From positions 64,001 to 128,000 of IMG/VR virus record IMGVR_UViG_3300020576_006967: a stretch of 64,000 nt of DNA. One strand, given 5' to 3'. The stretch comes from a virus (Duplodnaviria > Caudoviricetes). The position numbers were made by a program, and so were the translations under genes. The notes beneath the pieces were generated by a model. The model had not been told where the DNA came from, did no database searches, and saw only the letters and a program-made list of their open reading frames with translations. Positions within the stretch are counted from its first letter, which is position 1, and every line of letters begins with the position of its first letter. Positions 9,487-50,055 of the stretch are shown here, piece by piece.

Positions 9487-10392
9487 TTAAAGATATTCTT
9501 TTACAATTTTAAATTTGGTGCTGTGTCTTAATTTTCTTAAAGATTTTTCTTTAATTTGTCTAACACGCTCCCTGGTTAAATCGACTTTCACCCCAATTTC
9601 TTCAAGACTTTGAGCTGGTACACCTTCCTCTAAACCGAAAAATGCAACTATTACCTCTTGTTCTTTTTGAGTTAATCTAGATGCTAACATTTGTTTAATT
9701 ACAAACTTCAAATCTTCATTTATTAAACCAGCATCAACGTTTAAAGATGGATCCATTTTTATAAGATCAAGAAGTGTTGTTTGATTGTCGTCGCTAAAAG
9801 GTGTATCTAAGGATTGTGTTTTATTTGAGGTTGTTAGAAGCAAAGCAACATCTTCAATTAAAAAATTCTTTGCTGGAAATTTTTCAGAAAGATAAAAAGC
9901 AATTTCTTCAATAGATGGAGGTCTCTCAAGCTCTTGTTCTAATGCCGATGTTGCATTTCTTATTTTGTTTAGATCGGCAACTTTATTTAATGGTAATCTT
10001 ATTGTTTTTGAATGTTCGTTTATTTGTTGCATAATAGATTGACGAATCCACCACACAGCATAAGAGATAAATTTAAAGCCTCTGGAATGATCAAAACGTT
10101 TTGCGGCCTTAATTAAACCTTCGTTTCCAGCTGATACGAGATCTGGTAGAGATAAACCTTGATTTTGGTATTGTTTTGCAACACTAATAACAAATCTTAA
10201 ATTTGATTTTGCCATTTTGTTCACTGCTAACTGAGATGCATGCGGGTCTTCGTTGTATGCTTGAATTATTTTAGCAAGCTCAACTTCTTCTTCTGCTGTA
10301 ATCCCAGGGATTGTTCCAATTTCATTTAAGTACTTTTCGAAAGAAATTGATTCTCTGTTTGTGATTTGTTTAACGATTTTAAGTTGTCTCAT
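9487..10392 (-). CDS. rpoD: Bacteroidota-type RpoD/SigA sigma-70 factor
   Basis: MRQLKIVKQITNRES..YLNEIG; NLRFVISVAKQY; GFKFISYAVWWIRQSI; LTRERVRQIKEK. Confidence 0.9.
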   Translation of the reverse strand: MRQLKIVKQITNRESISFEKYLNEIGTIPGITAEEEVELAKIIQAYNEDPHASQLAVNKMAKSNLRFVISVAKQYQNQGLSLPDLVSAGNEGLIKAAKRFDHSRGFKFISYAVWWIRQSIMQQINEHSKTIRLPLNKVADLNKIRNATSALEQELERPPSIEEIAFYLSEKFPAKNFLIEDVALLLTTSNKTQSLDTPFSDDNQTTLLDLIKMDPSLNVDAGLINEDLKFVIKQMLASRLTQKEQEVIVAFFGLEEGVPAQSLEEIGVKVDLTRERVRQIKEKSLRKLRHSTKFKIVKEYL

Positions 10393-10481: not shown

Positions 10482-10521
10482 AAAAAACCCTCAACTTACT
10501 ATTGTTCGGTTGAGGGTTTTT
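10482..10521 (-). terminator. Intrinsic terminator closing the tmRNA locus
   Basis: aaaaaccctcaac / gttgagggttttt 13-bp inverted repeat. Confidence 0.8.
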
Positions 10522-10530
10522 GTTCGATCC

Positions 10531-10623
10531 TTAAACCAATTCAGCCACAAGGACTGCACTAGTTTCAGGCGTATTAGCGTAAGCGATTGCGCTTTGAGCT
10601 AATACCTTTGTTAGGTTTTTGCC
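10531..10623 (-). other. tmRNA tag reading frame (A)GKNLTKVLAQSAIAYANTPETSAVLVAELV*
   Basis: Resume context ATCAAAC-GGC resembles Bacteroidota tags that start with Gly; 30 codons then TAA within a hairpin. Confidence 0.65.
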
Positions 10624-10700
10624 GTTTGATAGGCTGATTAATCTCTCCTTGTAGCTTTTGATTCGTGTTCGAAATCATTCGCCCCCATTTTTTCAGTTAA

Positions 10701-10883
10701 TTACTTAACCGAGGTTGTAGTAGCTGCTGTTGTCATTGTATCAGCGCAAACCGCTTTACAAGAATCAACCGCTACAGTGTCACACTTAGGCGCTTCCGTT
10801 TCCGTAGCTACTTCAGTGGCCGTATTTGTACAAGCTCCTAGAGCTAATGCCAAAACGATCAATAGTTTTTTTGTTGTTTTCAT
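10701..10883 (-). CDS. Small lipoprotein inside the tmRNA intervening segment
   Basis: MKTTKK-LLIVLALALGAC lipobox; Thr/Ala-rich body with three more Cys. Confidence 0.8.
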   Translation of the reverse strand: MKTTKKLLIVLALALGACTNTATEVATETEAPKCDTVAVDSCKAVCADTMTTAATTTSVK

Positions 10884-10884
10884 C

Positions 10885-10952
10885 TAGTGGAAGCGCAGGG
10901 TATAGAGCCCTGGTTACACAAATTTCGACTACATATCAACGAGCTTAATCTG
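10885..10952 (-). ncRNA. ssrA: tmRNA acceptor piece (circularly permuted two-piece tmRNA)
   Basis: GATTAAGCTC..TGTAGT..ATTTGTG (P2), T-arm CAGGG-CTCTATA-CCCTG, acceptor strand CGCTTCC, discriminator A, then CTA; 5' end approximate. Confidence 0.85.
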
Positions 10953-10956
10953 ATTG

Positions 10957-10986
10957 TAAATATACAGAAATTTTTCCAATTCCAAA
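10957..10986 (-). promoter_or_regulatory. Bacteroidota housekeeping-type promoter for the tmRNA precursor
   Basis: TTTG-N18-TATATTTA, close to the -33/-7 consensus TTTG..TAnnTTTG. Confidence 0.6.
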
Positions 10987-17556: not shown

Positions 17557-18468
17557 ATGAAAATACTTTTCCCAAGCAGTCCTCTTAGTTTTAAAGAGGT
17601 TGACGATAATTTTACTGGTGAACTACATGCTGCAAAACTTGTTGGCTTTGATTGGTTTTTATTTGATCACGATGAGTTTGTGAGAACTGGAAAATTGAAA
17701 ACAAATATTAAAGAAAAAAAAGAAAATAAAGAACAAATTATATTAAGAGGTTGGATGTTACAAGCTGAACAATATTATGAATTGTATTGCCAACTTGAGG
17801 AACAATATGGGTTGCTTTTGATTAATAACCCAGATCAATATTTAAATTGTCATTATTTTCCGAATGCTTATCAACATATAATGGAACACACTTCTAAAAG
17901 TTGGTGGTCTGGTGATTGGAATGGGCGTGAAGATTCAAACAAACCAGAAGATATTAGTTGGGGACCCGTAAGGAGCCTTTTAGATAATAGCGATCTTATT
18001 ATTAAGGATTATGTAAAATCAGCAAAGGGTGAACCTGAACTTTTTATTCTTGGTAAAGAATTAAACAATGAAGATTTTGGTAAAAGAGTTGGTAGGTTTA
18101 TTGAAGCTAGAGGAAAATTATTTAATAAAGGAATAGTTTTAAAAAAAGTTGAAAAACTGAAACTATATGAAAACCAGACAAATGAGTATAGGTTCTTTTT
18201 TATTAACAAAAAAATGTTTATGTTTGGATATAATTCAGAAGATGTTAGCATAAAAGCATCAATGCCAACATTTGACATGGTTTCAATTTTAATGAAGGTG
18301 GCAAAAAATATTGAAAGTGATTTCTTCACAATAGATATTGCAGAGAAAGAAGATGGAACTTGGATGATTTTAGAAACTGGCGATGGTCAAGTGTCTGGTT
18401 TGCCAAGCAAACAAGATGAAATAAAATTTTATAATACATTAAATAACACCTTAAGTGGTGTAGAATAA
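17557..18468 (+). CDS. ATP-grasp protein (R2K-like clade)
   Basis: RGWML, KDYVKS, EYRFF, FFTIDIA..ILETGDGQVSG. Confidence 0.75.
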   Translation: MKILFPSSPLSFKEVDDNFTGELHAAKLVGFDWFLFDHDEFVRTGKLKTNIKEKKENKEQIILRGWMLQAEQYYELYCQLEEQYGLLLINNPDQYLNCHYFPNAYQHIMEHTSKSWWSGDWNGREDSNKPEDISWGPVRSLLDNSDLIIKDYVKSAKGEPELFILGKELNNEDFGKRVGRFIEARGKLFNKGIVLKKVEKLKLYENQTNEYRFFFINKKMFMFGYNSEDVSIKASMPTFDMVSILMKVAKNIESDFFTIDIAEKEDGTWMILETGDGQVSGLPSKQDEIKFYNTLNNTLSGVE

Positions 18469-18987: not shown

Positions 18988-20928
18988 ATGACAGTACAAT
19001 TAAAGCATTCATTTGGAATAATAGAATTTACGAGAGCGGGAAATGCGTATTTAATTTCAGAAAGTAAAAAAATAAATAAAGACGTTTTCATCCCAAGAGG
19101 AAGAACTGGAGAGGCCTTTAATGGAGATACGGTATTCGTTGCATTTAAACCTGGTAGAATTCCAGGTGAAACAATTGGCCATGTTATAGGTGTAAAATCT
19201 AGGTTTAGAAATGACTATCTAGGTACTTGTGAAATAAATGATGAAACGGGCGAGTTTGTAGTTAAAGCTACTTCTAAAAAATTTCCAATAGAATTTACAA
19301 TTCCAAAGCTTTACATAGGTCTAGCTAAGGTTGGAGACAAAGTTTCTGTTAAATTAAGTAAGTGGGATAAAAAATTAAACAAGCCTATCGGTCTTATCAA
19401 AGAAGTGTTGGGTAAAGCTGGTTTACACTCTACTGAAATGAAGGCGATTTTACTTGAAAACAATATTGAATCTAAATTTCCAGATTCAGTAATGAAAGAA
19501 GCGGAAGAAATTAACTTTGAAATTGATGCTGAAGAAATTGCTAAAAGAGAGGATTTTAGAGAGGTTGTTTGTTTAACAATTGATCCAAAGGATGCTAAAG
19601 ATTTTGATGATGCTTTATCTTTTAAAAAAATTGACAACAACATTTATGAAGTTGGAGTCCATATTGCAGACGTTTCTCATTATATGAAACCAGAAAGCGA
19701 GTTGGATGTAGAAGCTTACAGAAGATCAACATCCACATATTTAGTCGATAGATGCATTCCAATGCTTCCAGAGAGGCTTTCAAATGGAGTGTGCTCTCTT
19801 AGACCAAATGAAGAAAAATTGTGTTTCTCAGCTATTTTTATGTTGTCTTACACTGATCCAAGTGTAAACGGGCCAGCAAGAGCAAAAATTATAAATTCTA
19901 GATTTGCTAGAACTGTAATTAAGTCTGGAAAAAGATATTCATATGAAGATGCTCAGGAATTAATTGAAAACACAACACAAGCAGTCGATAATTATGATTG
20001 GGCAGTTCTTACATTAAATTTATTAGCAAAAGCATTAAGGACTGAAAGGTTTGAGCATGGCGCTGTGTCTTTTGAAAAACGTGAAGTGAAATTCAAGCTT
20101 GACGAAGATGGGTCGCCAATTGGTGTGTATTTTAAAGAATCAAAAGATTCAAATAAATTGATTGAAGAGTTTATGCTATTGGCTAATCAATCTGTAGCTA
20201 AATATATTGGGGAAAAAGATTTACCTTGTATATATAGAACCCATGCATTGCCATCTATGGAGCGTTTACAGGAGTTATCTATATTTGTTGAACAGTTTGG
20301 TTACACATTCAAAGTAAGCGAAGACGACGAGGCAAATAAAGAAGCTTTAAATAAATTACTTTTGGAAGTAAAAGGTTCAAATCATGCCAACATTATAGAA
20401 ACTGTAGCTGTTAGATCTATGTCAAAAGCTATTTACACAACAGCTGCACTTGGTCACTATGGTCTTGGATTTAAATATTATGGACATTTCACAAGTCCAA
20501 TTCGTAGATATCCAGATGTTATTTTACACAGATTGCTTGAAAGTTTGATGGCCACTGGAAACGTAGTTGCACCAAGGTTGCAAATTCAGTGTGATCATTG
20601 TTCTGAATTAGAAGGAAAAGCTGTAAAAGCAGAAAGAGATTCAATTAAGTTTAAACAAACAGAGTTTATGCAAAACAAAATTGGGCAAACATACGAAGGC
20701 GTTGTTTCTGGTGTTTCTAATTGGGGTTTACATGTAGAAATAAAAGAAAATGGGTGCGAAGGCATGATTGGAACTGGAGAAATGGGCGCTTTGGGTTATG
20801 TGCTTGATGAAAAAAATTATAAATTTATTAAAGAAAACAATGTAAAAATTTCTCTTGGAGACAAGGTGAATGTGAAAGTTTTCGGTGTAAATTTAACGAA
20901 GAGACAAATTGATCTTAATTTAATTTAA
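18988..20928 (+). CDS. rnr: Ribonuclease R (RNB family)
   Basis: TIDPKDAKDFDDALS, VHIADVS, HFTSPIRRYPD, C-terminal S1 domain. Confidence 0.92.
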   Translation: MTVQLKHSFGIIEFTRAGNAYLISESKKINKDVFIPRGRTGEAFNGDTVFVAFKPGRIPGETIGHVIGVKSRFRNDYLGTCEINDETGEFVVKATSKKFPIEFTIPKLYIGLAKVGDKVSVKLSKWDKKLNKPIGLIKEVLGKAGLHSTEMKAILLENNIESKFPDSVMKEAEEINFEIDAEEIAKREDFREVVCLTIDPKDAKDFDDALSFKKIDNNIYEVGVHIADVSHYMKPESELDVEAYRRSTSTYLVDRCIPMLPERLSNGVCSLRPNEEKLCFSAIFMLSYTDPSVNGPARAKIINSRFARTVIKSGKRYSYEDAQELIENTTQAVDNYDWAVLTLNLLAKALRTERFEHGAVSFEKREVKFKLDEDGSPIGVYFKESKDSNKLIEEFMLLANQSVAKYIGEKDLPCIYRTHALPSMERLQELSIFVEQFGYTFKVSEDDEANKEALNKLLLEVKGSNHANIIETVAVRSMSKAIYTTAALGHYGLGFKYYGHFTSPIRRYPDVILHRLLESLMATGNVVAPRLQIQCDHCSELEGKAVKAERDSIKFKQTEFMQNKIGQTYEGVVSGVSNWGLHVEIKENGCEGMIGTGEMGALGYVLDEKNYKFIKENNVKISLGDKVNVKVFGVNLTKRQIDLNLI

Positions 20929-20929
20929 A

Positions 20930-21442
20930 TTGTCGAACAGTTCTGAAATAAAAAACAATTCTCAAAAAAGAGGATTAAACTACTGGTTAAAAATGACTTT
21001 TAAAAGTCGTATGGCCAGGTTGCACATTCGTCTTAAAGCCAGGAGAAGACTAGCGTTTTATATAAAAATGCCAGAAATAAACAACATGCAAAAAAGAACA
21101 ATTGAGTTGTTTATGACTTTGTTGAAAAGTAAAGAGACAAGTTTAAATTTTTCTCCAGAATCTAAAATACGCTTTATAGAATCAAACACAATTTGGGTTA
21201 CTATGAGTAGTGTTTCTGATAGTCAGTGTGTAATTAATATTATTGATGAAGGCACTCAAGACGAGGCGCATTCTCATGAGGTTACAATACCAAGAGAATA
21301 TGCTTTTAATATGATGGATGAATTTGATCTTGAGCTTGAAAAAAGATTTAGAGGCATTGAGGCCGCTAAAAAAAGAATTGTCGTAGATGATCTTGATAAG
21401 CTTATAAAACAAGTAAAGTCAGAACAAAACAATGGAAGATAG
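20930..21442 (+). CDS. Hypothetical protein
   Basis: ORF track. Confidence 0.55.
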   Translation: MSNSSEIKNNSQKRGLNYWLKMTFKSRMARLHIRLKARRRLAFYIKMPEINNMQKRTIELFMTLLKSKETSLNFSPESKIRFIESNTIWVTMSSVSDSQCVINIIDEGTQDEAHSHEVTIPREYAFNMMDEFDLELEKRFRGIEAAKKRIVVDDLDKLIKQVKSEQNNGR

Positions 21443-21818
21443 GCCACCACTAGATAAATCAAATAAAATTTATACTTTAACCCCAAGGTTTATTACAAAT
21501 TTTATTGCTTATTATAGAAAAATAAGACTCAAAAGATATAAGCACAAAAAAATCAAAGAAGCAAAAACCACATTTGATAGAAATTATTTTATTAAATTTA
21601 AATTGAAGCTTAATGACTCGTTAAATCCGCAAATAAGTGATTTTGAATATGAAACTGTTATTCCAGCAAAAGCAATATATTTTGCGAAGCTTTTTCTAGA
21701 GCGTGACATTAAAAATAAAATTTCAATTGATGTTACAAGCTGGGAAGAAATGAGTGAGGAAGAACATGAAGAATTTCAAAACTCAATTAAAGAACACATT
21801 GAATCCAAAGGCAATTAA
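21432..21818 (+). CDS. Hypothetical protein
   Basis: ORF track. Confidence 0.55.
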   Translation: MEDRPPLDKSNKIYTLTPRFITNFIAYYRKIRLKRYKHKKIKEAKTTFDRNYFIKFKLKLNDSLNPQISDFEYETVIPAKAIYFAKLFLERDIKNKISIDVTSWEEMSEEEHEEFQNSIKEHIESKGN

Positions 21819-24067
21819 TTAAGTGGGTTTACAAAAGATTCATCAAGCAGCATTTCTTTTAATGATGTTTGTCTTTCTTCGTAATGAAAATTGTTTACAG
21901 CTGTCTCTAGGGCTTTTCTCTGGCCAACAAATACTGCAAATTTTTTAGCTCTAGTAAGGCCTGTGTAAATTAAATTTCTAAACAACATTCTGTAGTATTG
22001 ATTCATAACTGGCAATATAACACAATCAAATTCAGAACCCTGAGCTTTGTGTATTGATATTGAATACGCTAAATCTAAATCTAGAATATCGCTTCTTTTA
22101 TATTCTACTTCACGATCAGAAAACTTTACTGTAAGTTCATTTGTGCTTGCGTAAACATCAATTATTTTTCCGATGTCTCCATTGTATACCTCTAAATCGT
22201 AATTGTTTTTAGTGTGTATAACTTTATCTCCCTCTCTTAAAATTCTATCTTTAAGTTTTATTTCACCCTTATCACTTGATGGTGGATTTACAATTGATTG
22301 AATTTTTGCATTCATTTTTGCGTTTCCGAGATCTCCAACATTCATTGGGATAAGTATTTGTATTTCCTTTTCTTTGCCTAAATATTTTGGAAGACTCTCC
22401 ATGTAAAGTTTAACAGTCATGTCTATTACATCCAAACCGTATCTTAAAGAAGACCAGGCTGGGAATTTGGTTTTATCATAACCAGATTCGGCTAGACCAG
22501 AATCTACAAAAACACAATCAGTTCCATTTGTCCAAAGTTCAGGGTTTAACAAGGGGGTTTCTATGTTTGGTATTGATCCAGTGTTTATATCGTGTGCATA
22601 TTTTATAATTAAAGATTCCTTTCCTTGTCTAAAAATTTTATTAATTTTAAATATAGGAACAACACCGCTGTTAATTAAATCTTTGAAAAAATTACCTGGC
22701 CCAACTGGCTCTAATTGATCAGAGTCGCCGATAAAAATTATTTGAGCGTCATATGGTGTTGCTCTTAATAAAGCCGCAGCTAGATTAATGTCTTTCATAG
22801 AAGATTCATCAATAATTATGACATCTGCATTTATTGTATTGTTTTCATTTTTTAAAAAACCTCCATTTATGTGATCCCATGAAAGAAGTCTGTGTATCGT
22901 GGTGGCTTCCATTCCTATAACTTCAGTCATTCTTTTTGCAGCTCTACCAGTTGGCGCTGCCAAAACAATGTCTTTGCCAAGATCTAACAAAATGTCCACA
23001 ACTTTTTTAGTTATTGTGCTTTTTCCAGTTCCAGGACCGCCAGTTAAAATAGAAATACCGCACCCTAAAACGCCTTTTACTGCAGAAGTCTGTTCGTCAC
23101 TTAATTGTATTTTATCATTGTTACTGTTTAATAAATCTTCGTGGACATGCACTTTGCTATTGTTTTGCATTAAGGCGTGCACTTTTTCGCAACAATAAGT
23201 TTCATTGAAATAAACTTTTCTTTCGTAATACCTTTTTTCCCCTCTTTTTACGGTAAGCGTTTTTATCTCTTGCTTTTGTTCCATTGCATCTAGCAACAAT
23301 TCAAAATTAGGTTTTTCAGCAATGTTTAAAAGTTCTAAAGACTTTGATGAGATTTGTGATAGTAATAAATAACAGTGACCTTCATTCGTGGCTTGTTCTA
23401 GAACAAAGTTGATTGATGCCTTTATTCTTTGTGGACTATCTTCTTTAAAGCCTGCTTTAAGAGCTATTTTATCAGCTGTCATGAAACCTATTCCAGAAAT
23501 ATCACTTGTTAGTTTGTAGGGATTATTTAAAATTTGAGCTACGCAATTTTTACCATAAAATTCATATATTTTTGTTGCATACAGACTTGTTATGCCATGT
23601 TGTTGAAGAAAGATCATAATGCCATTCATTTCATTGTTTTTCTCCCAGGTTTCCTTTATAGCTTTTAGTTTTGCTTTTGAAATTCCTGGTACTTTTAACA
23701 TTTCATCTGGGTTTTCATTTAGTGTTTTTATAACATCTTCACCAAAGTGTTCTACAATTCTGTTGGCGATAACTGGGCCAATACCAGAAAAAAAGCTAGA
23801 CTGTAAATACGATCTTAATCCTTCTTTGCTAGAAGGCTGTTTTTCAATTGCAAAAGTCGCCTTAAATTGTTTGCCAAATTTTGGATGAGCAGTCCACTCA
23901 CCCTGGAATTCGTATGTGCAGCCTTCGTGTATGTTTGGTTGAGTAATTGTGATCTTTGTATCTTTCTTCATTTCAAGCGTTTCCACACTTAAAACATAAT
24001 AATTATTTTCTTCGTTTAAATAGAGTATTTTCTCAATTACGCCCGTAACTTTTTCTTCTTTTTGCAT
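21815..24067 (-). CDS. recD2: RecD2-like SF1B helicase
   Basis: HhH GIGP, GGPGTGKS, APTGRAA, IIDESSM, IHKAQGSE, YTGLTRA. Confidence 0.92.
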   Translation of the reverse strand: MQKEEKVTGVIEKILYLNEENNYYVLSVETLEMKKDTKITITQPNIHEGCTYEFQGEWTAHPKFGKQFKATFAIEKQPSSKEGLRSYLQSSFFSGIGPVIANRIVEHFGEDVIKTLNENPDEMLKVPGISKAKLKAIKETWEKNNEMNGIMIFLQQHGITSLYATKIYEFYGKNCVAQILNNPYKLTSDISGIGFMTADKIALKAGFKEDSPQRIKASINFVLEQATNEGHCYLLLSQISSKSLELLNIAEKPNFELLLDAMEQKQEIKTLTVKRGEKRYYERKVYFNETYCCEKVHALMQNNSKVHVHEDLLNSNNDKIQLSDEQTSAVKGVLGCGISILTGGPGTGKSTITKKVVDILLDLGKDIVLAAPTGRAAKRMTEVIGMEATTIHRLLSWDHINGGFLKNENNTINADVIIIDESSMKDINLAAALLRATPYDAQIIFIGDSDQLEPVGPGNFFKDLINSGVVPIFKINKIFRQGKESLIIKYAHDINTGSIPNIETPLLNPELWTNGTDCVFVDSGLAESGYDKTKFPAWSSLRYGLDVIDMTVKLYMESLPKYLGKEKEIQILIPMNVGDLGNAKMNAKIQSIVNPPSSDKGEIKLKDRILREGDKVIHTKNNYDLEVYNGDIGKIIDVYASTNELTVKFSDREVEYKRSDILDLDLAYSISIHKAQGSEFDCVILPVMNQYYRMLFRNLIYTGLTRAKKFAVFVGQRKALETAVNNFHYEERQTSLKEMLLDESFVNPLN

Positions 24068-24156
24068 AGTCCAAATGTAGTTAATTTGTCTGGGATTTAC
24101 AATAAAATTTGGTAATTATTAATTTAATGTTTAAATTCGTGATATAAAAAAATACA

Positions 24157-24375
24157 ATGACTTCAAAAAAAATAATCAAAATCCTTAAAGATAAATTTCC
24201 AAAAAAAGAAATTATAGGTATTCGTGGTTTAACAAAGGTGGGAGAGCACGACTTCAGCTTTAGATATGTATTTAGAAGCGGCGATCATTTATCAATTAGT
24301 GATTTGATGACATTGACAGAGCAAAAAGAAAAAACAAAAAAAGATAGTAAAAAACAAAAAAGCACGGTTAAATAA
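24157..24375 (+). CDS. Hypothetical protein
   Basis: ORF track. Confidence 0.5.
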   Translation: MTSKKIIKILKDKFPKKEIIGIRGLTKVGEHDFSFRYVFRSGDHLSISDLMTLTEQKEKTKKDSKKQKSTVK

Positions 24376-26142
24376 ATGAGCAAATTTCTGGAAGACTGGT
24401 GCTTGCCATTATATTTTTATGATGGAAAGGATGACCCTAAAATAAAAGAAGACCTAGACAGGTTTAAAGATAAGTGTGAAAATTATATTAAAAAATATGA
24501 AGGCAACATTGCTAAATTATCTGATGAGGAATTTTTAATTTTTTTAGAAGATTCTGATAATCTACAAATTGAAGAAACTAAAATAAGTTTTTATTTTGAA
24601 CTTTTGATCTCTTTAAACAATCACGACGAAAGCACTCAGAAAGAAATTACAAAATATGGAAAAATATTCTCAGAATACTTTTCAAAGCTTTTTTTTGTTG
24701 ATGAAGAATATAAAAAAATAGGTTACAGCAACCTTATTTTAAAATCTGAAACAAAACTATTTGAACCTTTTAAAAATTATCTAATTTCTCTTGCAAAAGA
24801 CTTAAAACACGTATTAAGCCCAGAAGAGGAGAAGATTTATATTAAATTAGACAATGCTTCAAGTACAAATATGTACGAAGAACTTACAACATCTTTTGAG
24901 TTTACGTTTAATGATAAAATAATTGGCGAATCTGAAATTTTTGATTTAAGACAACATAAAAATAGGACTATAAGAAAAAAAGCTTATGAAAGCATAGCAA
25001 GGGTTTATGGAAACAAAAATAATCAAATTGTTCTTGGAAATTTATATAGCATTGTTTGCAAGCAAGACATAGTAGATTTAGAAATTAGAAAATATAATTC
25101 AGTAATGACCTCAAGAAATATTTCTGAAGAGGTTGAAGATGTTACTGTAGATATATTAATTGATACAGTTGAAAAAAATTATCCTTTATATCATAAGTTT
25201 TTGAAAAAAAAGAAAGCTGTGATAGGGTTAGAAAAAATGTTTGTTTATGACGTACCTGCTTCAATTCCAAAAGAAAAAAACTCACAACATAAATTAGCCT
25301 TTAGAGATGGGTGGAAAATATACAAAGATACAATTCAAAAGGTCGATCCTGAGTTGGCTAAATTTTCAGAGGAAATGCTTCTTGGCGGTAGAATGTCAAT
25401 GTTCCCAAAGCCAGGAAAGTCAAGAGGGGCATTTGCTCAATATTCGAAGCACACACAACAGTTTGTATTATTAAATTGGACTGATTCTGTGAGTGATATA
25501 TTTACAATGGCGCATGAACTAGGTCATGCTTTTCATGGACATTTATCTAAGGGGCAGAAAAATCTTGTTTATGATACGCCTTTAATTTTGGCAGAAACAG
25601 CGTCAATTTTTAATGAGACTTTAATGTTTGAAACAATGTTAAAGGAAATTGTTGACAAAGATGAACGTAGGAGAATAATTTGTGATCGTTTAAATGATTT
25701 GTTTTTAACCATATTTAAGCAGGTTGCATATACAATATTTGAAAAAAGGTGCCATGAGTGCTTTTTAAAAAACCAACCATTGACTTACTCCGACTACAAC
25801 AAAATGTGGATGGAAGAAATGGTAAAGCTTTACGGCAAAGACGTGGATGTTAACCCAGAAATAACACAACATGGCTGGTCTTCTATATCTCACATTTATG
25901 ATACACCATTTTATTGCTATACATATGCGTTTGGCAACATAATAAGTTTGAATCTATATCAAAACTACAAAAATTCAAAAGATAAAAATGATTTTATAAA
26001 AAAATACCACAAACTACTTTCTTCAGGTGGTTCAGATACTCCAGAGAATCTTTTGTATAAAATTTTTAAAATAAAATTTGATGAAAAATTTTATCAAATA
26101 GCATTTGACAACATTAAGGACTTAATTAAAAAAATAAAATAA
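24376..26142 (+). CDS. pepF: Oligoendopeptidase F (M3B)
   Basis: GKSRGAF, HELGHAFH, AETAS, FYCYTYAFG. Confidence 0.85.
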   Translation: MSKFLEDWCLPLYFYDGKDDPKIKEDLDRFKDKCENYIKKYEGNIAKLSDEEFLIFLEDSDNLQIEETKISFYFELLISLNNHDESTQKEITKYGKIFSEYFSKLFFVDEEYKKIGYSNLILKSETKLFEPFKNYLISLAKDLKHVLSPEEEKIYIKLDNASSTNMYEELTTSFEFTFNDKIIGESEIFDLRQHKNRTIRKKAYESIARVYGNKNNQIVLGNLYSIVCKQDIVDLEIRKYNSVMTSRNISEEVEDVTVDILIDTVEKNYPLYHKFLKKKKAVIGLEKMFVYDVPASIPKEKNSQHKLAFRDGWKIYKDTIQKVDPELAKFSEEMLLGGRMSMFPKPGKSRGAFAQYSKHTQQFVLLNWTDSVSDIFTMAHELGHAFHGHLSKGQKNLVYDTPLILAETASIFNETLMFETMLKEIVDKDERRRIICDRLNDLFLTIFKQVAYTIFEKRCHECFLKNQPLTYSDYNKMWMEEMVKLYGKDVDVNPEITQHGWSSISHIYDTPFYCYTYAFGNIISLNLYQNYKNSKDKNDFIKKYHKLLSSGGSDTPENLLYKIFKIKFDEKFYQIAFDNIKDLIKKIK

Positions 26143-26143
26143 C

Positions 26144-26638
26144 ATGAAAAAAGAAACAATACAAAAATTTTTAGATGCTGGCAAATTAAAAGAATTAGAA
26201 TTCTGTAAATTATTTTCAGATGATGATGTGGTTTTAGCAACACCAGAACAAGACATGAAAGAACATTGGGATGTAATGATTCGTGGAACAAAGTACGATG
26301 TGAAAGGAATAAAGAAAGTAAATAGAAACGATAACGAAGGAAACGAAGATATTCATTGGCTGGAAATTAAAAATGTGAACAAACAAACTGGGTGGGCATA
26401 TGGCGGTGCAGATAGATTTGCTTTTGAAGTTAAAGATTATTGGATATTGGTTGAAAAATCAGATTTACAAGGTTTTATTTCTGAAAATGTAAATAAAAAA
26501 GTAATTGTTAGTAAGCCAGAACTTTATCATTTATACAGAAGAAACGGAAGACAAGACCTTATAGTCCTTGTAAAAACAATGGATTTGTGTTATTTGTCGA
26601 CGGAAATTATAAAAAAACCCAGACAACTTGCACAATAA
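26144..26638 (+). CDS. PD-(D/E)xK nuclease-like protein
   Basis: E..HWD..DVKG..WLEIKNV..GW. Confidence 0.55.
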   Translation: MKKETIQKFLDAGKLKELEFCKLFSDDDVVLATPEQDMKEHWDVMIRGTKYDVKGIKKVNRNDNEGNEDIHWLEIKNVNKQTGWAYGGADRFAFEVKDYWILVEKSDLQGFISENVNKKVIVSKPELYHLYRRNGRQDLIVLVKTMDLCYLSTEIIKKPRQLAQ

Positions 26639-26662
26639 AAAATAAATCATTAAATTTATAAC

Positions 26663-27379
26663 ATGAAAAAGAAATTGGTTGTTTTAAGTGGTGCGGGTCT
26701 TGATACAGAGGCTGGAATACCAACTTTTAGAGATAGTAATGGCCTTTGGGAAAATTACAACGTTGAAGATGTGGCAAGTCCCAAAGGATGGATCTCAAAC
26801 CCAGAATTGGTTTTAAGATTTTACAACGAAAGAAGAAGGCAGTTGGCTAGCGTAGAACCTACAGAAGCGCACAAGTTATTTGTAAAGCTAGAAGAGTATT
26901 TTGATGTATATCACATTACTCAAAATATTTCAGATTTATTAGAAAGAGCTGGAGCTAAAAATATTTTGCATCTTCACGGAGAACTTGTAAAAGCAAAAAG
27001 TTCAAGTGGCCTTGGAGAAAGCAAATTTATTGGTTACGAAGACATAAATGTTGGTGACTTGTGTGAAGACGGATTTCAAATGAGGCCAGATATTGTGTGG
27101 TTTGGAGAAATGGTACCAATGATTAAAAAAGCAGAAGACATCACCTTGTTTTCAGATATTTTTGTTATAGTGGGTACTTCTCTAAATGTATACCCTGCGG
27201 CTGGATTGGTTGGTTGGAACGACCCAGAAGTTCCAATATACATTATTGATCCAACTAGCTCTTCACTAATTGCTAAAAGAGAACAATATACAACAGTGAT
27301 TAAAAAACCAGCTACAGAAGGCGTAGCAGAACTAATGGAAATATTACTTAAAAATTTAGAACCTAATGATCAAATTTAA
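26663..27379 (+). CDS. cobB: Sir2/CobB NAD-dependent deacylase
   Basis: GAGL..GIPTFR, TQN, HLHG, RPDIVWFGE, GTSLNVYPAA. Confidence 0.88.
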   Translation: MKKKLVVLSGAGLDTEAGIPTFRDSNGLWENYNVEDVASPKGWISNPELVLRFYNERRRQLASVEPTEAHKLFVKLEEYFDVYHITQNISDLLERAGAKNILHLHGELVKAKSSSGLGESKFIGYEDINVGDLCEDGFQMRPDIVWFGEMVPMIKKAEDITLFSDIFVIVGTSLNVYPAAGLVGWNDPEVPIYIIDPTSSSLIAKREQYTTVIKKPATEGVAELMEILLKNLEPNDQI

Positions 27380-28487
27380 AAATAACGCTGGGGAGTTTTA
27401 TTCAGGATTACAAACTCATGGATATTTTCCAATAAAAAATTGGTATTTAACTGTTTATGGCGAAATTCCAAATGCTTTTAACACAAATCACTATGTTAAG
27501 ACTGATAGTTTTATTGAGCAGTTTAAAAGCCTTGTAATTGTCAAATCTACAACGTTTAGTACAAATAGCATGTCTGAAATTATTGCAGAAGCAGCTTTTG
27601 ATATTGGTGGAGGAGTAGTTGTAAACTTGAAAGATAATTTCTTTTCAAAAAAAGATCAAATACAAAAAGGTCAGTTATTTTTGTATTATACAAAAGAAAC
27701 AGAAGAAGTAAAAAAAATAAAAAAATATTTAATAGACAACAAAGTTGAAGACGAGAAGAAGGGTATTATAAACCTTGTGTGTCAATCTCAAAACGGGTTT
27801 TATTTAAAAGAATATACTATTAAAAATTCTCCAATTGATTTTGATGCAAACTACAACGAAGACTTTAAACAAGTTGACAAAATTATAATGAGTAGATTGA
27901 GCAAAGAGAACGATAAGGGGCTTGTCCTTCTTTATGGTGATCCAGGCACTGGTAAATCTTCCTACATTAGGAGAATCATCAACGAAGTGGACGATAAGAG
28001 AATTTTATATATGCCACCAGACATGACGGCGCAATTATCAAGCCCATCTTTGGTTCCATTCCTTTCAGATTATTCAAATTCCATTTTAATCATAGAGGAT
28101 GCGGAAAACGTTTTAATTAAAAGACAGGGTCAGCACAATCAAGCAATTTCAAACATATTAAATATGTCAGATGGTTTATTGGGAGATTGTTTAAACATTC
28201 AAATTGTTGCTACATTTAACACTGATTTAAAAAACATAGACGAAGCTCTTCTTAGAAAGGGAAGATTAATTGCTAAATACGAATTTGGTCATCTTACAAT
28301 TGATAGAATTAAAAAGCTATCTTCGACCCTTGGTATTAAATATAAAAAAGAGTTTAAAACAGTGGCAGACGTTTATAATAGTGATGAAATGAGTTTCGTA
28401 GAAGAAAAACAAACGGTTGGTTTTAAAATAAAAGAACTTAGGGTAGATACAACAATAGACGGAAAAAGCATATTTGATCAAAAATAG
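27366..28487 (+). CDS. AAA+ ATPase
   Basis: GDPGTGKS, IIEDAE, LLRKGRL. Confidence 0.85.
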   Translation: MIKFKNNAGEFYSGLQTHGYFPIKNWYLTVYGEIPNAFNTNHYVKTDSFIEQFKSLVIVKSTTFSTNSMSEIIAEAAFDIGGGVVVNLKDNFFSKKDQIQKGQLFLYYTKETEEVKKIKKYLIDNKVEDEKKGIINLVCQSQNGFYLKEYTIKNSPIDFDANYNEDFKQVDKIIMSRLSKENDKGLVLLYGDPGTGKSSYIRRIINEVDDKRILYMPPDMTAQLSSPSLVPFLSDYSNSILIIEDAENVLIKRQGQHNQAISNILNMSDGLLGDCLNIQIVATFNTDLKNIDEALLRKGRLIAKYEFGHLTIDRIKKLSSTLGIKYKKEFKTVADVYNSDEMSFVEEKQTVGFKIKELRVDTTIDGKSIFDQK

Positions 28488-28525
28488 TGAAACTTTTTTA
28501 TTTAAATAACGTATAAGTAGTAAAG

Positions 28526-28990
28526 GTGGGAAAAATTAAAAAGATAAAAGAACCTTTTAGAATTGAAAATAGGAAGGCAAAATACGAATATAAACTTTTA
28601 GAAAGTTTTGATTGCGGTATTGTGTTGAAGGGCACCGAGATAAAGTCTATACGAGAGAATTCGGCTAATATAGGCGCTGCTTATTGTTATTTGTCAAACG
28701 GACAAGTTATAATAAAAAACATGCATATTTCTGAGTGGAAACATGCTACTACCACACACGATCCAACAAGGGACAGGGTTCTGTTGTTGAAAAAGAAAGA
28801 AATAGAAAAAATTACCAGAGAAGTTAAGACTGCTGGTATAACTCTTGTGCCGACGGTTCTTTACGAAAAAAAGAACATAGCAAAAGTTATCATCAGTTTA
28901 GCCAAAGGTAAAAAAACTAGAGATAAAAGAGATAAAATTCGTGAAGACAATATTAAGCGTGACACAGACAGAGAAATGAATTCTTTTTAG
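28526..28990 (+). CDS. smpB: SsrA-binding protein SmpB
   Basis: ENRKAKYEY..GIVLKGTEIKSIR..HDPTRDRVLLL..GKK..DKR tail. Confidence 0.92.
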   Translation: MGKIKKIKEPFRIENRKAKYEYKLLESFDCGIVLKGTEIKSIRENSANIGAAYCYLSNGQVIIKNMHISEWKHATTTHDPTRDRVLLLKKKEIEKITREVKTAGITLVPTVLYEKKNIAKVIISLAKGKKTRDKRDKIREDNIKRDTDREMNSF

Positions 28991-29030: not shown

Positions 29031-30092
29031 ATGAAAAGAGAATGGTCTGAAAAACAAGTTGATACATTAAAGCAAAATTATGCTAATGGTAAAAAAGAAG
29101 ATCTTATTAAGCTTATAGGAAAAAGTTGGTGTGCTATTTTATGCAAGGCCAACAAGTTGAAATTGCAAAGAGAACTACTTCAGTTAAAAAATGTAGACAC
29201 CTCTAATTGGTCTCTAAAAGAGTTAGAAATATTAAAGAAAAATTATTTTGAATTAAGTAAAGAAGAATTAATAAAACTTATCCCAAACAGAAAATGGTCT
29301 TCAATACAACAAAAAGCATTTTGTTTTAATTTAAAACGAAAAACAGAAAGAGACTCAGAATTAAGTGTCTTATTGAAAGAAAACAATGAGGTGTATTATT
29401 GGCTTGGTTTTTTAATGGCAGATGGGCACTTTTCAGAAAGTTCAATTCAAGTTAATTTAGCTAAAAAAGACATTGAACATTTGAAAAAATTTTCAAAATT
29501 TGTAAAATGTAAAAAGGATCTTGTAAAACCTAATTTCAAAGCTGGTGATAAAAAAGTTTTAAATTTATTGCGACAGAAATTTAAAATTAAAAACAATAAA
29601 ACATATCATCCATGTGATATTGAAAACATAAAAAATGACGATTTTTTATTCTCTTTAATAATAGGGTTTATAGATGGCGATGGATCTATTTGCGCTTCTT
29701 ATGGGAGAACATCGTTATCTGTAAAGTGTCACTCTTCTTGGTTTAATAATTTAGAGATTATGTTAAATGTTTTATGCGGAGAAAATAAAAAAACATATAA
29801 AACAAGAATAAATAGTTACAATTTAGCTTATTTTTTTATTACTGATTTAAGTATTTTGAAAAAAATTAAACTAAAATTGCTAGGACTTAAATTACCAGTT
29901 TTAAAAAGAAAATGGGATAAAATTGATTTAAAAAAAGAGTCTGCAATTGAAGAACATGAAAGATTAAAAAAAATGTGTTATGATAATTTTAAACTTGGAA
30001 AGAAACCTAGTGAAATAACCGACAAAAATAGAGTTAGTGTTAGTTTTTGTTATAAAATGCTTGCAGAATATAGGAAAATTGAAACCTTTTAA
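29031..30092 (+). CDS. LAGLIDADG homing endonuclease with N-terminal Myb-like repeats
   Basis: WLGFLMADG and IIGFIDGDG; WS..E..LK..Y repeats. Confidence 0.8.
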   Translation: MKREWSEKQVDTLKQNYANGKKEDLIKLIGKSWCAILCKANKLKLQRELLQLKNVDTSNWSLKELEILKKNYFELSKEELIKLIPNRKWSSIQQKAFCFNLKRKTERDSELSVLLKENNEVYYWLGFLMADGHFSESSIQVNLAKKDIEHLKKFSKFVKCKKDLVKPNFKAGDKKVLNLLRQKFKIKNNKTYHPCDIENIKNDDFLFSLIIGFIDGDGSICASYGRTSLSVKCHSSWFNNLEIMLNVLCGENKKTYKTRINSYNLAYFFITDLSILKKIKLKLLGLKLPVLKRKWDKIDLKKESAIEEHERLKKMCYDNFKLGKKPSEITDKNRVSVSFCYKMLAEYRKIETF

Positions 30093-45121: not shown

Positions 45122-47920
45122 ATGAGTTATATTTACAGCGTATTTCAGAAAGCAATTTTTAATTTTTTATTACATGGAATGGGTAATGCCGTTATTTCTG
45201 CTGTGGCTGGAAGTGGTAAAACAACAACCATTCAAGAGTGTTTGACCTTAATTCCATCAGATAAAAGTGTGTTATACATGGCGTTTAACGTTGAGACGGT
45301 TAATAAAGTTAAAATCAAATACGTTTCAAATACGAATATTAAATTTAAAACTTCTCATGGTATTGGATATGCGGCATTATTAAAACATGACAGCTCCATT
45401 GAACTAGATGAATATAAATATTCTAAAATGATACGTAATATTCATCACTATATTTTAGAAGGCAAATCAAACAAAATAAAAGAATACGGTTTCACTCCCG
45501 AAATTTTAAGAGATCTCCAAGAGTTTAGAGCTGATAGTGAGCTGCCAGATTACGATAGCTTAGAAAATTTTCAAGATAGAATAAAATCTCTTTGTTCTCT
45601 GGCAAGAGGCATGCTTGTGTATAATTGTGAAGAACTAGAAATGATAGCTAGGACTTACGATATTGATTATAGCAATGGCGAATGTCGCATTGCTCTTTTA
45701 TTGGTTAGTCTTGGTGAATACTATTCATCAAAGGTTGATTATACTGACATGATTTATTTTCCAAATAGATTTAATTTAAAAACAGATCAATACGATTTTG
45801 TATTTGTTGATGAGTGCCAGGATTTAAATAAGGCCCAGAGATTACTAATGCTTAAATCTTTAAAACCAAATGGCAGATTTATTGCTGTTGGCGACCCTTG
45901 TCAACCCGAAGGCACAACTGTACAGGTTGTTATTAAAAAAGCTGACAGATGGAATAAAGCAATTATAATTGATAAAAAAATAGAAGATTTAACTTTAGAA
46001 GATAAAGTTGTGTCAGCTGATTTTAGAAGTTCTTCTTTTGTGTATGGTAGAAAAATTTTAGGTATAACCAAAAAAGAATATCAAGGAGATTTAATAAAGG
46101 TTGATTTGCCATCTGGCAAGTCAAGTAAATATACAATAAACCATCATTGTGTAGCTGATTTTAAATCAGTATCGCACAAATATGCTGTGTATATGATGAA
46201 AAGAGGTGATAATTTTAGGGTAGGTAGAAGTAAATTAGATTATGGAAATACTGGATCTGGTGTTTCAGTAAGGGCTAGAACTGAAAAAGCTGAAAGTTTT
46301 TGGATTCTAGATGTTTATGATACAAAAGAAGAGTGCGCCTTAATGGAAAAAGCAATCTCTGGAAAATTTGGTATTCCAGAGATAACTTTTGAACCTTCTT
46401 ATAGTAGTTCTGATAGAATTATATTTAATAAAGAATTTTTAGATAAAGCATGGAAATATTTATCTGATACACATCTAATGGAAAGAGCAGAAAGGTGTTT
46501 GACAGAATTTGGAAGAGATATTCGTTATCCATTTTTTTCATTAGACAATAAAAAACAAAAAACATTTAAAAGACCAATTGTCGTTCATGCTTGTAATTTA
46601 TTAGATGGTTGTTTAATGCTCCCTTTTAACAAACAAAATGGTAGCCATTACAAAAAAACACAGTGGGAACAAATAAAAATTAAAAGAGAAAAATACTCTG
46701 GTTTTGTTTATAGTTTATCTGTTGAAAAAGAGAGCTTATATGTTGCTGACAATATTTTAACGCATAATTGTCAAGCAATTTATGGCTTCGCTGGCGCAGA
46801 TTTTATAAGTTTTAAACAGTTTGTTAAAATACCTAACACCATAGAGCTTCCGCTTTCTGTGTGCTACAGGTGCGACAGCGAAATAATAGATTTAGCTAAG
46901 ACTTTGGTTCCACACATAGAGTTTTTCGATAAGAATGCTAAAGGAGTTGTAGATAATGAGGCTAAAAAAGAAAACATAAAAAGTGGAGATATGGTACTTT
47001 GCAGAACAAATTATCCTCTTATAAAAATGTGTCTTGATTATTTAAAGGTTGGAGTAAAGGCTCATGTGAGAGGTAGAGATATTGGAAAAAATATTGTTGA
47101 CATTTTAAAGAAAAGTAAAACCGAAGATCTATCTGCGCTGTTTAGTTACGTGTATACAGATTTAGAAAAGATTAAAAAAAGAGTACAAGACAAGCACGGT
47201 CTTAGCTTTTCAGAAGCACAAGAGCACCCAACTTATGTTGCCTATAAAGAAAAAATAGAAATCATAGAACTTTTATCTGCTGAAGCAAAAACGGTTAACG
47301 ATATAGTTTTAAAAATAGAACAAATATTTTCAGACGACAATGACGACGGGATTCAATTAAGTACAATACACAAAGCTAAAGGTTTAGAAAGCGACAATGT
47401 TTTTATCATACACAGAGAGCTTCTTGGTTCTATGTATTCTGGCCCAAACTCACAAGAAGACAATATAATGTATGTAGCCTATACAAGAGCAAAACACTAT
47501 CTTGGTTTTGTTATTGATTTTAGTGCATATAAAGACAAAAAACAACATGATAAATCTGGTGAGGCAAAAATTATCCCTAAATCAAATTTTGTAGGAACTC
47601 TAAATGAAAAAATGTTTATTGATTTAACATTAAGAAACACGGTGGTTTCACAAGATGGTAAATATACAATTTATAAATTTGTGGATGAGTTTGGCAATAT
47701 TTTTTCTAAATTTGCTCCAGTTCCAGAAGAGTTTCTTTCTGGGAAAACTTTTAGATGTTGTATAAAAATAACAAAGCATAACGAATTTAAAGGCGTAAAA
47801 GATAATACCGTTTCGTATATGGAGACAGAAGCGGATGCAAAAGCCAGAGATGAAGAAGTTGAAAGAAAAAGAATTAGTAAGCTTACTTTAAAAAAAAAAG
47901 AAAAAAAACCAAAATTTTAA
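45122..47920 (+). CDS. UvrD/Rep-like SF1A helicase containing an intein
   Basis: AVAGSGKT, VDECQD, VGDP[intein]CQAIYGF, STIHKAKGLE, YVAYTRA. Confidence 0.88.
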   Translation: MSYIYSVFQKAIFNFLLHGMGNAVISAVAGSGKTTTIQECLTLIPSDKSVLYMAFNVETVNKVKIKYVSNTNIKFKTSHGIGYAALLKHDSSIELDEYKYSKMIRNIHHYILEGKSNKIKEYGFTPEILRDLQEFRADSELPDYDSLENFQDRIKSLCSLARGMLVYNCEELEMIARTYDIDYSNGECRIALLLVSLGEYYSSKVDYTDMIYFPNRFNLKTDQYDFVFVDECQDLNKAQRLLMLKSLKPNGRFIAVGDPCQPEGTTVQVVIKKADRWNKAIIIDKKIEDLTLEDKVVSADFRSSSFVYGRKILGITKKEYQGDLIKVDLPSGKSSKYTINHHCVADFKSVSHKYAVYMMKRGDNFRVGRSKLDYGNTGSGVSVRARTEKAESFWILDVYDTKEECALMEKAISGKFGIPEITFEPSYSSSDRIIFNKEFLDKAWKYLSDTHLMERAERCLTEFGRDIRYPFFSLDNKKQKTFKRPIVVHACNLLDGCLMLPFNKQNGSHYKKTQWEQIKIKREKYSGFVYSLSVEKESLYVADNILTHNCQAIYGFAGADFISFKQFVKIPNTIELPLSVCYRCDSEIIDLAKTLVPHIEFFDKNAKGVVDNEAKKENIKSGDMVLCRTNYPLIKMCLDYLKVGVKAHVRGRDIGKNIVDILKKSKTEDLSALFSYVYTDLEKIKKRVQDKHGLSFSEAQEHPTYVAYKEKIEIIELLSAEAKTVNDIVLKIEQIFSDDNDDGIQLSTIHKAKGLESDNVFIIHRELLGSMYSGPNSQEDNIMYVAYTRAKHYLGFVIDFSAYKDKKQHDKSGEAKIIPKSNFVGTLNEKMFIDLTLRNTVVSQDGKYTIYKFVDEFGNIFSKFAPVPEEFLSGKTFRCCIKITKHNEFKGVKDNTVSYMETEADAKARDEEVERKRISKLTLKKKEKKPKF
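45899..46768 (+). mobile_element. Intein (290 aa) in helicase motif III
   Basis: Starts CQPEGT; block B TINH; block F VYSLSV; ends ILTHN followed by Cys. Confidence 0.9.
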
Positions 47921-48745
47921 ATGGAAGCCACAAAAACAAAAATAATTAAGCTGGGTTACCAGGCACCAAAAGGTTATAGAATTAATCGTGGTTTTATGAC
48001 CATTGGAATCAAAGACATGCACTATTGTTATTCGCATGATTTTTGGTTTGATAAAGAGGAACAAAGTCGTTTGTTGCATTTTGGACAACCGTGTTTTTAT
48101 ACAGATGGATATGTAGAAGGTAGACATAATTATTATGGCGAGGGAAGTATGTTGTGGGCAAGACGTAAGGGTTTTACTTTAAAGAAAGCGCTTAGACTTA
48201 TTAAAAAAACCAAAAACATTCCTGTTGGAACCATTGTAAATATTGAGCACAACCAATACGCCACAAGCAAGAAAGGTAAAACTGTAAGTTTGGGTTATAA
48301 ATATAGAGTTAGGAAAGAAAACACATTTGACCCTAAGTACGAGGTTTCAAGACCAAGTTATTTTAAAAATTTCAACACCGATCAAAAAGCTAAAGAACTT
48401 ACAGATTTGTTAAGAGCCAACGGGTTTTTAGTAAGTGTTTCAAATAAAAACCCAAATTTCATTTCTTCGCTGATTTCAACCGCAGCCTCTTATAAAGGTT
48501 CTCACATAGATGTACAAGAAGAAGAGGGTGAAACAGCTGTTGCATACGGTCACGGTCTTAGAGTTGGTTATTCTTCAAACAAAGATAGTTATTATGGGTA
48601 TTCAAACGGTTGTGAATTAGTTTTGTACGATAAATGGGACGAGTTTGACAAATGGAGTAGATGTAATGGAATTAAAAAAGACGTTCCAAACGAAGAAATT
48701 GTAAGACTACTTATTGAATATTCTAAAACCACACATGAACAATAA
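47921..48745 (+). CDS. Hypothetical protein
   Basis: ORF track. Confidence 0.6.
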   Translation: MEATKTKIIKLGYQAPKGYRINRGFMTIGIKDMHYCYSHDFWFDKEEQSRLLHFGQPCFYTDGYVEGRHNYYGEGSMLWARRKGFTLKKALRLIKKTKNIPVGTIVNIEHNQYATSKKGKTVSLGYKYRVRKENTFDPKYEVSRPSYFKNFNTDQKAKELTDLLRANGFLVSVSNKNPNFISSLISTAASYKGSHIDVQEEEGETAVAYGHGLRVGYSSNKDSYYGYSNGCELVLYDKWDEFDKWSRCNGIKKDVPNEEIVRLLIEYSKTTHEQ

Positions 48746-50000: not shown

Positions 50001-50055
50001 AATCATGCAAGAACAGAAAAAAAGAATTAGTTTCACCTGATTTAATTTATTAGTT

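Follow-up and report, generated by a model that had tools for sequence, protein, structure and literature searches.

A two-piece tmRNA, SmpB and a short RNase R kept as a syntenic gene set in huge freshwater phages with probable Bacteroidota hosts

Transfer-messenger RNA (tmRNA) and its protein partner SmpB are among the many translation genes described in phage genomes larger than 200 kb (Al-Shayeb et al. 2020, PMC7162821), in a study that called its tmRNAs with ARAGORN and left ribonuclease R (RNase R) unmentioned. A later survey found tmRNA genes in 2.3% of phage genomes, 53 of them in two-piece form and mostly marine (Buchholz et al. 2022, PMC9004378); the two-piece tmRNAs of Melnitz, pelagiphages and cyanophages resemble those of alphaproteobacterial or cyanobacterial host lineages and can be detected by ARAGORN. 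Among bacteria, the tmRNA of Caulobacter also consists of two pieces (PMC12320835). Here we analyse a stretch of 64,000 nt, called the window throughout, which spans positions 64,001 to 128,000 of the IMG/VR virus record IMGVR_UViG_3300020576_006967 and encodes a divergent two-piece tmRNA, a full-length SmpB and a short form of RNase R. We consider it likely that the phage lineage to which the window belongs carries these parts of ribosome rescue as a syntenic set of its own and puts them to use.

Bacterial trans-translation as known from E. coli and Caulobacter shares with this locus a tRNA-like domain with a G3:U70 pair, the SmpB tail, an exoribonuclease of the RNB family and a tag frame that starts with alanine. 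The phage genes differ from the bacterial ones in an RNase R without the helix-turn-helix (HTH) domain or the tail rich in lysine and arginine (K/R-rich), in a 22-residue tag that ends LVAELV, in an RNA that lacks pseudoknots 2-4, its coding piece being closed by a terminator hairpin immediately behind the tag, and, in the window's sublineage, in a 201-nt spacer that holds a lipoprotein ORF (open reading frame). With the marine phage tmRNAs the locus has in common a phage-borne, circularly permuted ssrA gene, which in the marine phages is transcribed as one precursor; no phage SmpB or RNase R has been described alongside those RNAs (PMC9004378), whereas the nearest cellular relatives of the proteins described here are found in Bacteroidota. 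Two of the genomes of Al-Shayeb et al. 2020, LR745206 and LR756502, encode both SmpB (about 43% identity) and RNase R (about 44%); neither gave a match to the Rfam families RF00023 or RF04321 over the cut-off, and their short RF00023 matches look like tRNAs. What sets the window apart from these huge phages is the placement of the set in one conserved block, a two-piece RNA missed by ARAGORN and a non-canonical tag. PHROGs families already exist for both proteins (phrog_6791, 'unknown function', and phrog_13933, 'nuclease'), and the literature searched contained neither a paper that brings ribonuclease R, SmpB, tmRNA and phage genomes together nor one on a two-piece tmRNA in Bacteroidota phages. 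Phage tmRNA with SmpB (2020) and two-piece phage tmRNAs (2022) are already known; new are a family of divergent two-piece tmRNAs carried by huge phages of a phylum in which the single control genome, Bacteroides thetaiotaomicron, gave no match to RF04321 (tmRNA_permuted), the invisibility of this RNA to standard tools, its conserved non-canonical tag, the uniformly HTH-less RNase R and the conserved co-location of the genes.

The first-pass annotation of this DNA had grouped a permuted tmRNA with SmpB and RNase R under the interval 18988-28990. The RNA is present in the same window, but outside that interval, at about 10482-10945 on the minus strand, and comparison with six homologues shows that it is a real tmRNA. 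The homologues (L094, L138, L155, L157, L160 and L161, on syntenic contigs of 25-538 kb) were reached through related SmpB and RNase R proteins, through the spacer ORF as a handle and through the intergenic region beside a neighbouring sigma-factor gene. MAFFT misaligned the acceptor pieces of the variants with short spacers, and the pieces were aligned separately. The acceptor stems read GGGGGCG/CGCTTCC, GGGTACG/CGTATCC, GGGGGCG/CGTCTCC and GGGGTAG/CTACTCC in the first four of the seven variants and GGGGATA/TATCTCC, GGGGACG/CGTCTCC and GGGGATG/CATCTCC in the other three. Standard pairs fill 49 of the 49 cells of this alignment, positions 4-7 covary, and G1, G2 and the alanine identity pair G3:U70 are invariant. 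Because 18 to 201 nt separate the two strands, depending on the variant, the pairing joins separate pieces and does not form a local hairpin. Every variant also has a T-arm with a 5-bp stem and a loop of 6-8 nt (TTTGAAT in L155), the outer pairs of helix P2 swap on both sides (UA to CG, GC to UA), and the stems of the terminal hairpin covary around a conserved 13-nt loop. The sequence of that loop, TGAAC/GxAxAGTAR, is kept in the window, L094, L138, L155 and L157, which exceeds what a plain terminator needs; the loop might pair elsewhere or bind a protein.

RF04321 was the top Rfam family in all four of the variants scanned at relaxed thresholds, with 36.1 bits in the window (E 0.0012 over the whole window), 32.3 in L094, 38.3 in L161 and 33.5 in L155. 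In the acceptor piece, the 5' end of which is approximate, the T-arm CAGGG/CTCTATA/CCCTG occupies 10912-10896 and is followed by the acceptor 3' strand CGCTTCC (10895-10889) and the discriminator A (10888). The coding piece opens with the acceptor 5' strand GGGGGCG (10686-10680), continues with a D-loop analogue and the 5' strands of P2, contains a conserved block around AAACGG that is a candidate for pseudoknot 1, and closes with the terminal hairpin (10516-10488) and a T run. Upstream of the gene, GTATATTTAC recurs in the six variants for which the sequence on that side was read, with A as the final base in L161. The block to which it belongs resembles the -33/-7 type of Bacteroidota, and by that consensus it would be a promoter.

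Between the two pieces, the window has a 60-amino-acid ORF (10883-10701, minus strand) with a lipoprotein-type signal (..LALALGAC..) and four cysteines. It is conserved in L094 and L138, differing from the L094 copy at 10 synonymous and 7 non-synonymous codons. Since the spacers of L155, L157 and L160 are only 18-22 nt long and that of L161 (tmRNA at L161:1135-1414, minus strand) is 83 nt, the ORF appears to have been inserted into the spacer in a single sublineage.

The tag frame, GCT...TAA, comprises 22 codons at 10599-10531 (minus strand) and encodes AQSAIAYANTPETSAVLVAELV in the window. The corresponding peptides are AVSAMEWAAIRETNATLVAELV in L094, ALQAIAWSEIKETNAVLVAELV in L138, AESAMAYANMKETSALVAELV in L155, AESAMAYAAQKETNEVLVAELV in L157, AESAMAYASIKETSAVLVAELV in L160 and, in the most distant variant, L161, AAAAMANASMKETSADIIEFAAA, which ends EFAAA. 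All variants resume at a GCN alanine codon without a start codon, and the frame upstream of that codon is not conserved, a 1-nt indel shifting it. The LVAELV end is present in six of the six close variants despite synonymous codon changes. Computed on five of these close variants, with L160 left out, the ratio of non-synonymous to synonymous polymorphism (pN/pS) is 0.16 for the last 11 codons and 0.87 for the first 11, and partial contigs of low depth from other runs contribute four further synonymous changes and one that is non-synonymous. The last 11 tag codons are under purifying selection, and the pattern of selection is that expected from the sequences if the tag is translated and its C-terminus matters.

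Searches by other routes extended the family no further. A 17-nt T-arm pattern hit 4 loci in IMG/VR and 39 in metagenomes, all of them chance matches, L127 included. An exact 18-mer from the 5' end of the coding piece had no match in IMG/VR, a back-translated SmpB scan of IMG/VR returned no relatives, and no tmRNA was found upstream of related sigma factors (37-52% identity) at 80 IMG/VR loci. In L093, which has RNase R and SmpB, neither a sigma factor nor a tmRNA was seen within 10 kb upstream, which does not establish absence.

The two protein genes are intact and lie exactly where the first-pass annotation had put them. SmpB matches Pfam PF01668 at 6.3e-49 (166 bits, cut-off 27) and passes both NCBIfam equivalogs (NF003843, 166 bits against 130; TIGR00086, 155.7 against 119.1). 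Its alignment with solved SmpB chains spans the whole length and takes in the tail GKKTRDKRDKIRED with its DKR, and the columns of this GKK...DKR tail are invariant in 120 of 120 aligned SmpBs. A quick tree places the phage SmpBs in a single clade (SH-aLRT 93) among SmpBs of the Bacteroidota type. It had been suggested that SmpB may have co-evolved with the divergent tmRNA. The phage clade retains nearly all invariant residues; about ten positions on which its cellular relatives agree are altered in it, among them Y71 to L/W and K85 to V, and this pattern hints at best weakly at such co-evolution.

RNase R has the Pfam domains OB_RNB, CSD2, RNB (2.6e-103) and S1, with the catalytic motifs DPKDAKDFDDA and SPIRRYPD intact. 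Its domain layout (CSD1-CSD2-RNB-S1) and size of about 645 amino acids are those of RNase II, but by sequence score it is an RNase R, reaching 625 bits on the NCBIfam equivalog TIGR02063 (cut-off 597.85) and only 178 bits on the RNase II model TIGR02062 RNase_B (cut-off 641.9). The N-terminal HTH is missing: residue 15 aligns to residue 79 of Bacillus subtilis RNase R, residue 10 aligns to residue 81 of the Pedobacter enzyme, and positions 1-66 of the TIGR02063 profile are unmatched. The roughly 45 closest clusters (60-81% identity) are all 641-677 amino acids long, and cellular RNase Rs of Bacteroidota come next, at 46-49% identity and 703-763 amino acids.

The three genes recur together in related genomes. 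All of them are present in five contigs, namely the window record (189 kb), L094 (25 kb), L155 (538 kb), L157 (396 kb) and L160 (159 kb), in one conserved block with the same gene order, which bears out the co-occurrence that the first-pass annotation had proposed to check. L161 (141 kb) has the tmRNA and RNase R and does not reach the position of smpB; L089/L090 (55 and 150 kb) have RNase R and SmpB, with the tmRNA position not found; and a 100-kb ENA contig, covered for the two protein genes, has both. The block runs from a sigma factor and the tmRNA (both on the minus strand) through about 7 kb of small genes to an M23 peptidase, an R2K ATP-grasp protein and RNase R, and then through two small ORFs, RecD2 (minus strand), a small ORF, an M3 oligoendopeptidase, another small ORF and Sir2 and/or an AAA ATPase to SmpB.

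If these parts work together, the following course of events may be proposed. A single transcript would start from the conserved promoter-like block and be cleaved into two RNAs, an acceptor and a coding piece, whose pairing in the 7-bp acceptor stem and in helix P2 would build the tRNA-like domain. The alanyl-tRNA synthetase of the host would charge this RNA through G3:U70, and because the window variant encodes CTA it would first need a 3' CCA to be added. Phage SmpB would then bring the RNA to ribosomes stalled on broken mRNA, translation would resume at the GCT codon, and a 22-residue tag ending in LVAELV would be appended. RNase R would degrade RNA, the released non-stop mRNA being one possible target. 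The likely benefit is that ribosomes would stay free while infection cuts mRNAs, whether by the phage or by RNA-cleaving defences of the host; a counter-defence role, as raised in the first-pass annotation, would be one possibility. The genes, the paired architecture of the RNA, the selection on the tag peptide, the conservation of the set and the viral record are direct results, and from them we infer how the RNA is processed, charged and paired with SmpB, what becomes of tagged proteins and what the phage gains.

What counts against this reading concerns the RNA, the contig, RNase R and the tag in turn. ARAGORN reported no tmRNA in the window, in the whole contig or in any of the fetched loci, and no Rfam family reached its gathering score (47 bits for RF04321) in the window or in four relatives. 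Part of the inner P2 is not preserved in L094 and L138, and the consensus fold gave no clear pseudoknot at the AAACGG block. The window encodes CTA (10887-10885) where CCA is expected, as do L094, L157, L160 and L161, which all have ACTA; ACCA is encoded in two of the seven variants, L138 and L155. No CCA-adding enzyme (PF01743) was found on the fragment, which is itself incomplete. The sequence occurs in sequencing runs of riverine and freshwater metagenomes, and the source sample may be among these; they were consulted as assembled contigs, and gaps in coverage carry no meaning. RNA-library runs contained small shares of the sequence, and one 192-nt RNA-library contig from X16 spans the border of spacer and coding piece, which can show neither transcription nor the ends of the RNA.

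Capsid, portal and tail genes were likewise not identified on the fragment, their families not having been searched individually. This would fit an explanation in which the genes are passengers or an artefact, sitting on a cellular or chimeric contig or freshly captured from a host without a role in infection, as would the place of one relative in an NCBI genome assembly, possibly a bin of cellular origin, and the fact that many 'phage' database matches for SmpB and RNase R are host DNA flanking prophages. We regard this explanation as very improbable. The first-pass annotation would fall if the contig proved to be cellular, and the evidence points to a virus: the record is classed as one by IMG/VR, encodes a TerL-like ATPase (phrog_2, 9.2e-23) and carries arrays of tRNA genes, 16 in all, at its ends. 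It is linear, 188,933 bp long, about 31% GC and 74% complete according to CheckV, encodes homing endonucleases and endonuclease VII, and shares a jumbo-phage protein family with Tenacibaculum phages, Lak phages and uncultured huge phages. Assemblies made independently, from several sources and sets of samples, show the same gene order, which excludes a chimera. The phage SmpB and RNase R share only 46-55% identity with the closest cellular proteins and form clades of their own, and RNA, tag and short RNase R form are all specific to the lineage and under selection. The window belongs to a huge freshwater phage, the contigs of its relatives measuring 140-538 kb. Its host is probably a member of Bacteroidota, judging from the cellular proteins closest to SmpB and RNase R and, if it is read correctly, the promoter-like motif.

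RNase R stops at the S1 domain, without the C-terminal K/R-rich extension, and its gene lies 7.6 kb from smpB, with unrelated genes between, in a different transcription unit that ends at the convergent RecD2 gene. The K/R-rich region is needed in E. coli for the association of RNase R with tmRNA-bound ribosomes, and the HTH and K/R-rich regions both mediate the SmpB-tmRNA-dependent proteolysis of RNase R (PMC12320835). Having neither, the phage enzyme should escape that proteolysis; as it also lacks the known recruiting element, the known mechanism does not back a role for it in non-stop decay. It is therefore a serious alternative, to which we give somewhat less than an even chance, that tmRNA and SmpB work as a pair and RNase R acts outside trans-translation as a deregulated general 3'-5' exoribonuclease. 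Such an enzyme might serve bulk turnover of host RNA and nucleotide salvage, clear cleaved RNA alongside RNA-repair enzymes, or trim the 3' ends of tmRNA and tRNA precursors; RNase R is known to trim or degrade tmRNA in some bacteria (PMC12320835). The many RNA-repair and tRNA genes of the genome agree with these uses. At contig positions 1-66000 and 127001-188933, Pfam identified RtcB, a PNK-like protein, RlaP and GluRS, and PHROGs identified an RNA ligase, an RNA 2'-phosphotransferase, a tRNA-His guanylyltransferase and ADP-ribosylglycohydrolases; the RF-1/ArfB domain (PF00472) and Pth (PF01195) were not found on the fragment. Speaking for a place in trans-translation, the enzyme scores over the RNase R equivalog cut-off, and SmpB co-occurs with it in every relative in which both positions are readable. 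Some cellular RNase Rs of Bacteroidota, such as the 710-residue form of Pedobacter, also lack the K/R tail, which is thus possibly dispensable in that phylum, where the E. coli rule may fail.

The end of the tag is not of the ALAA type, and tagging for proteolysis by the host ClpXP cannot therefore be assumed. A complete rescue pathway, as first annotated, stands in so far as its three parts are real, phage-borne and conserved; its completeness is in doubt where RNase R lacks the HTH and K/R tail and the tag lacks an ALAA-type end. Past its stop codon, L161 has a remnant resembling the GCAGAA...TAA that encodes AELV in the other variants, and together with its EFAAA end this suggests that the canonical tag end was lost in the window's subclade. 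These features, and the strict conservation of LVAELV in the six close variants, would agree with a re-aimed system in which LVAELV is no degron for host ClpXP and the products are left stable or sent to a fate chosen by the phage, for example its own ClpP with an AAA ATPase. The contig does encode a ClpP of the cell type about 8 kb before the window (contig 56127-56846, plus strand; Pfam CLP_protease 1.4e-68; 257.7 bits on NF001368, cut-off 249), together with three AAA ATPases, two of them at contig 47049-50302. A match of this ClpP to a 'head maturation protease' was set aside, the ClpP-related head-maturation model remaining below its cut-off. Nothing ties ClpP or the AAA proteins to the tag, however; judged by family, these AAA proteins resemble neither ClpX nor ClpA, and the direction from FAAA to LVAELV depends on the single outgroup L161. 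Apolar C-termini can also be recognised by other host proteases. We consider a re-aimed system unlikely, and prefer the reading in which the phages carry and use their own rescue parts.

Table 1. Positions in the window of the ribosome-rescue genes and of the genes around them.
Feature	Position	Strand	Details	Basis
Sigma-70 family factor, adjoining the tmRNA gene on its downstream side	9487-10392	-		phrog_351, 1.7e-59
tmRNA coding piece	10482-10686	-		RF04321 alignment, variant comparison
Segment between the tmRNA pieces	10687-10884	-		Discriminator-to-coding-piece gap 201 nt
tmRNA acceptor piece	10885-10945	-	P2 3' strands, T-arm, acceptor 3' strand	RF04321 alignment, seven-variant comparison
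Promoter-like block upstream of the tmRNA	10957-10986	-	TTTG (10986-10983), then TATATTTA (10964-10957)	Sequence reading
R2K-type ATP-grasp protein, block start	17557-18468	+	Syntenic in relatives	Pfam R2K_3, 1.2e-17
RNase R, short form CSD1-CSD2-RNB-S1	18988-20928	+	646 amino acids	Pfam, NCBIfam
Two conserved ORFs, translationally coupled to RNase R	20930-21818	+	170 and 128 amino acids	Kept in relatives
RecD2-type helicase, convergent with the RNase R unit	21815-24067	-		Pfam; phrog_4412, 1.5e-175
72-amino-acid ORF, M3-family oligoendopeptidase, 164-amino-acid ORF	24157-26638	+		Pfam
Sir2-family deacylase and AAA ATPase, just upstream of smpB	26663-28487	+	Sir2 26663-27379; AAA 27366-28487	Family matches
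SmpB, full length with C-terminal tail	28526-28990	+	154 amino acids, GTG start	Pfam, NCBIfam

The remaining genes of the block are listed with the rescue genes in Table 1. The sigma factor adjoins the tmRNA in L094, L155, L157 and L161 as well, and served as the anchor of synteny. An AlphaFold model of the 170-amino-acid ORF that follows RNase R (predicted local distance difference test score, pLDDT, 80.8) had no fold match in the PDB at an E-value of 0.001 or better, and that of the 164-amino-acid ORF is of low confidence (pLDDT 59.9). RecD2 measures 750 amino acids in the window and 1093-1098 in L156 (15720-19016) and in the 100-kb ENA contig, where it matches Hom_end_hint and Hom_end; from these matches we conclude that some members of the lineage have a RecD2 intein and the window does not. 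The oligoendopeptidase (24376-26142) is PepF-like, with 2.7e-42 on Pfam Peptidase_M3 and 396.9 bits on TIGR02290, below the cut-off of 561.7. The Sir2/AAA pair occupies a variable slot, relatives having Sir2, AAA or both, sometimes with a homing endonuclease in addition. Directly after smpB, a 353-amino-acid ORF (29031-30092, plus strand) has a weak LAGLIDADG_3 match (22.8 bits, cut-off 22.5); it is probably a homing-endonuclease insertion, as relatives have small unrelated ORFs at this place. Farther away, a 932-amino-acid helicase (45122-47920, plus strand) matches phage helicases in two pieces that cover 54% of its length, which suggests that it carries a large insertion, an intein or an extra domain. 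At the other end of the window, a 300-amino-acid ORF (1-858, minus strand, reaching contig 63959) matches the terminase large subunit in the ATPase part only, and may be a truncated TerL paralogue instead of the packaging enzyme.

To our knowledge no phage-encoded tmRNA/SmpB pair has so far been tested, and the reason why phages carry them is an open question. Taken to its furthest, the present locus could be a private trans-translation system, orthogonal to that of the host and run by a clade of huge Bacteroidota phages, in which the FAAA degron was swapped for LVAELV, SmpB was matched to the RNA and RNase R was stripped of its control and recruitment domains. We hold this stronger proposal to be improbable; if true, such a system would rescue ribosomes after RNA cleavage and also set the fate of the products, possibly through the phage's own ClpP. 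As the RNA is missed by ARAGORN and by the Rfam cut-offs, surveys that report 'SmpB without tmRNA' in phages may undercount complete sets. The cognate pair would append a tag recognisably different from the host's, so that phage tagging should be separable from host tagging by mass spectrometry. An RNase R without HTH or K/R tail offers a probe of the need for those extensions in non-stop decay beyond E. coli, and a switch from FAAA to LVAELV inside one phage clade would be a natural experiment on the purpose of the tag during infection.

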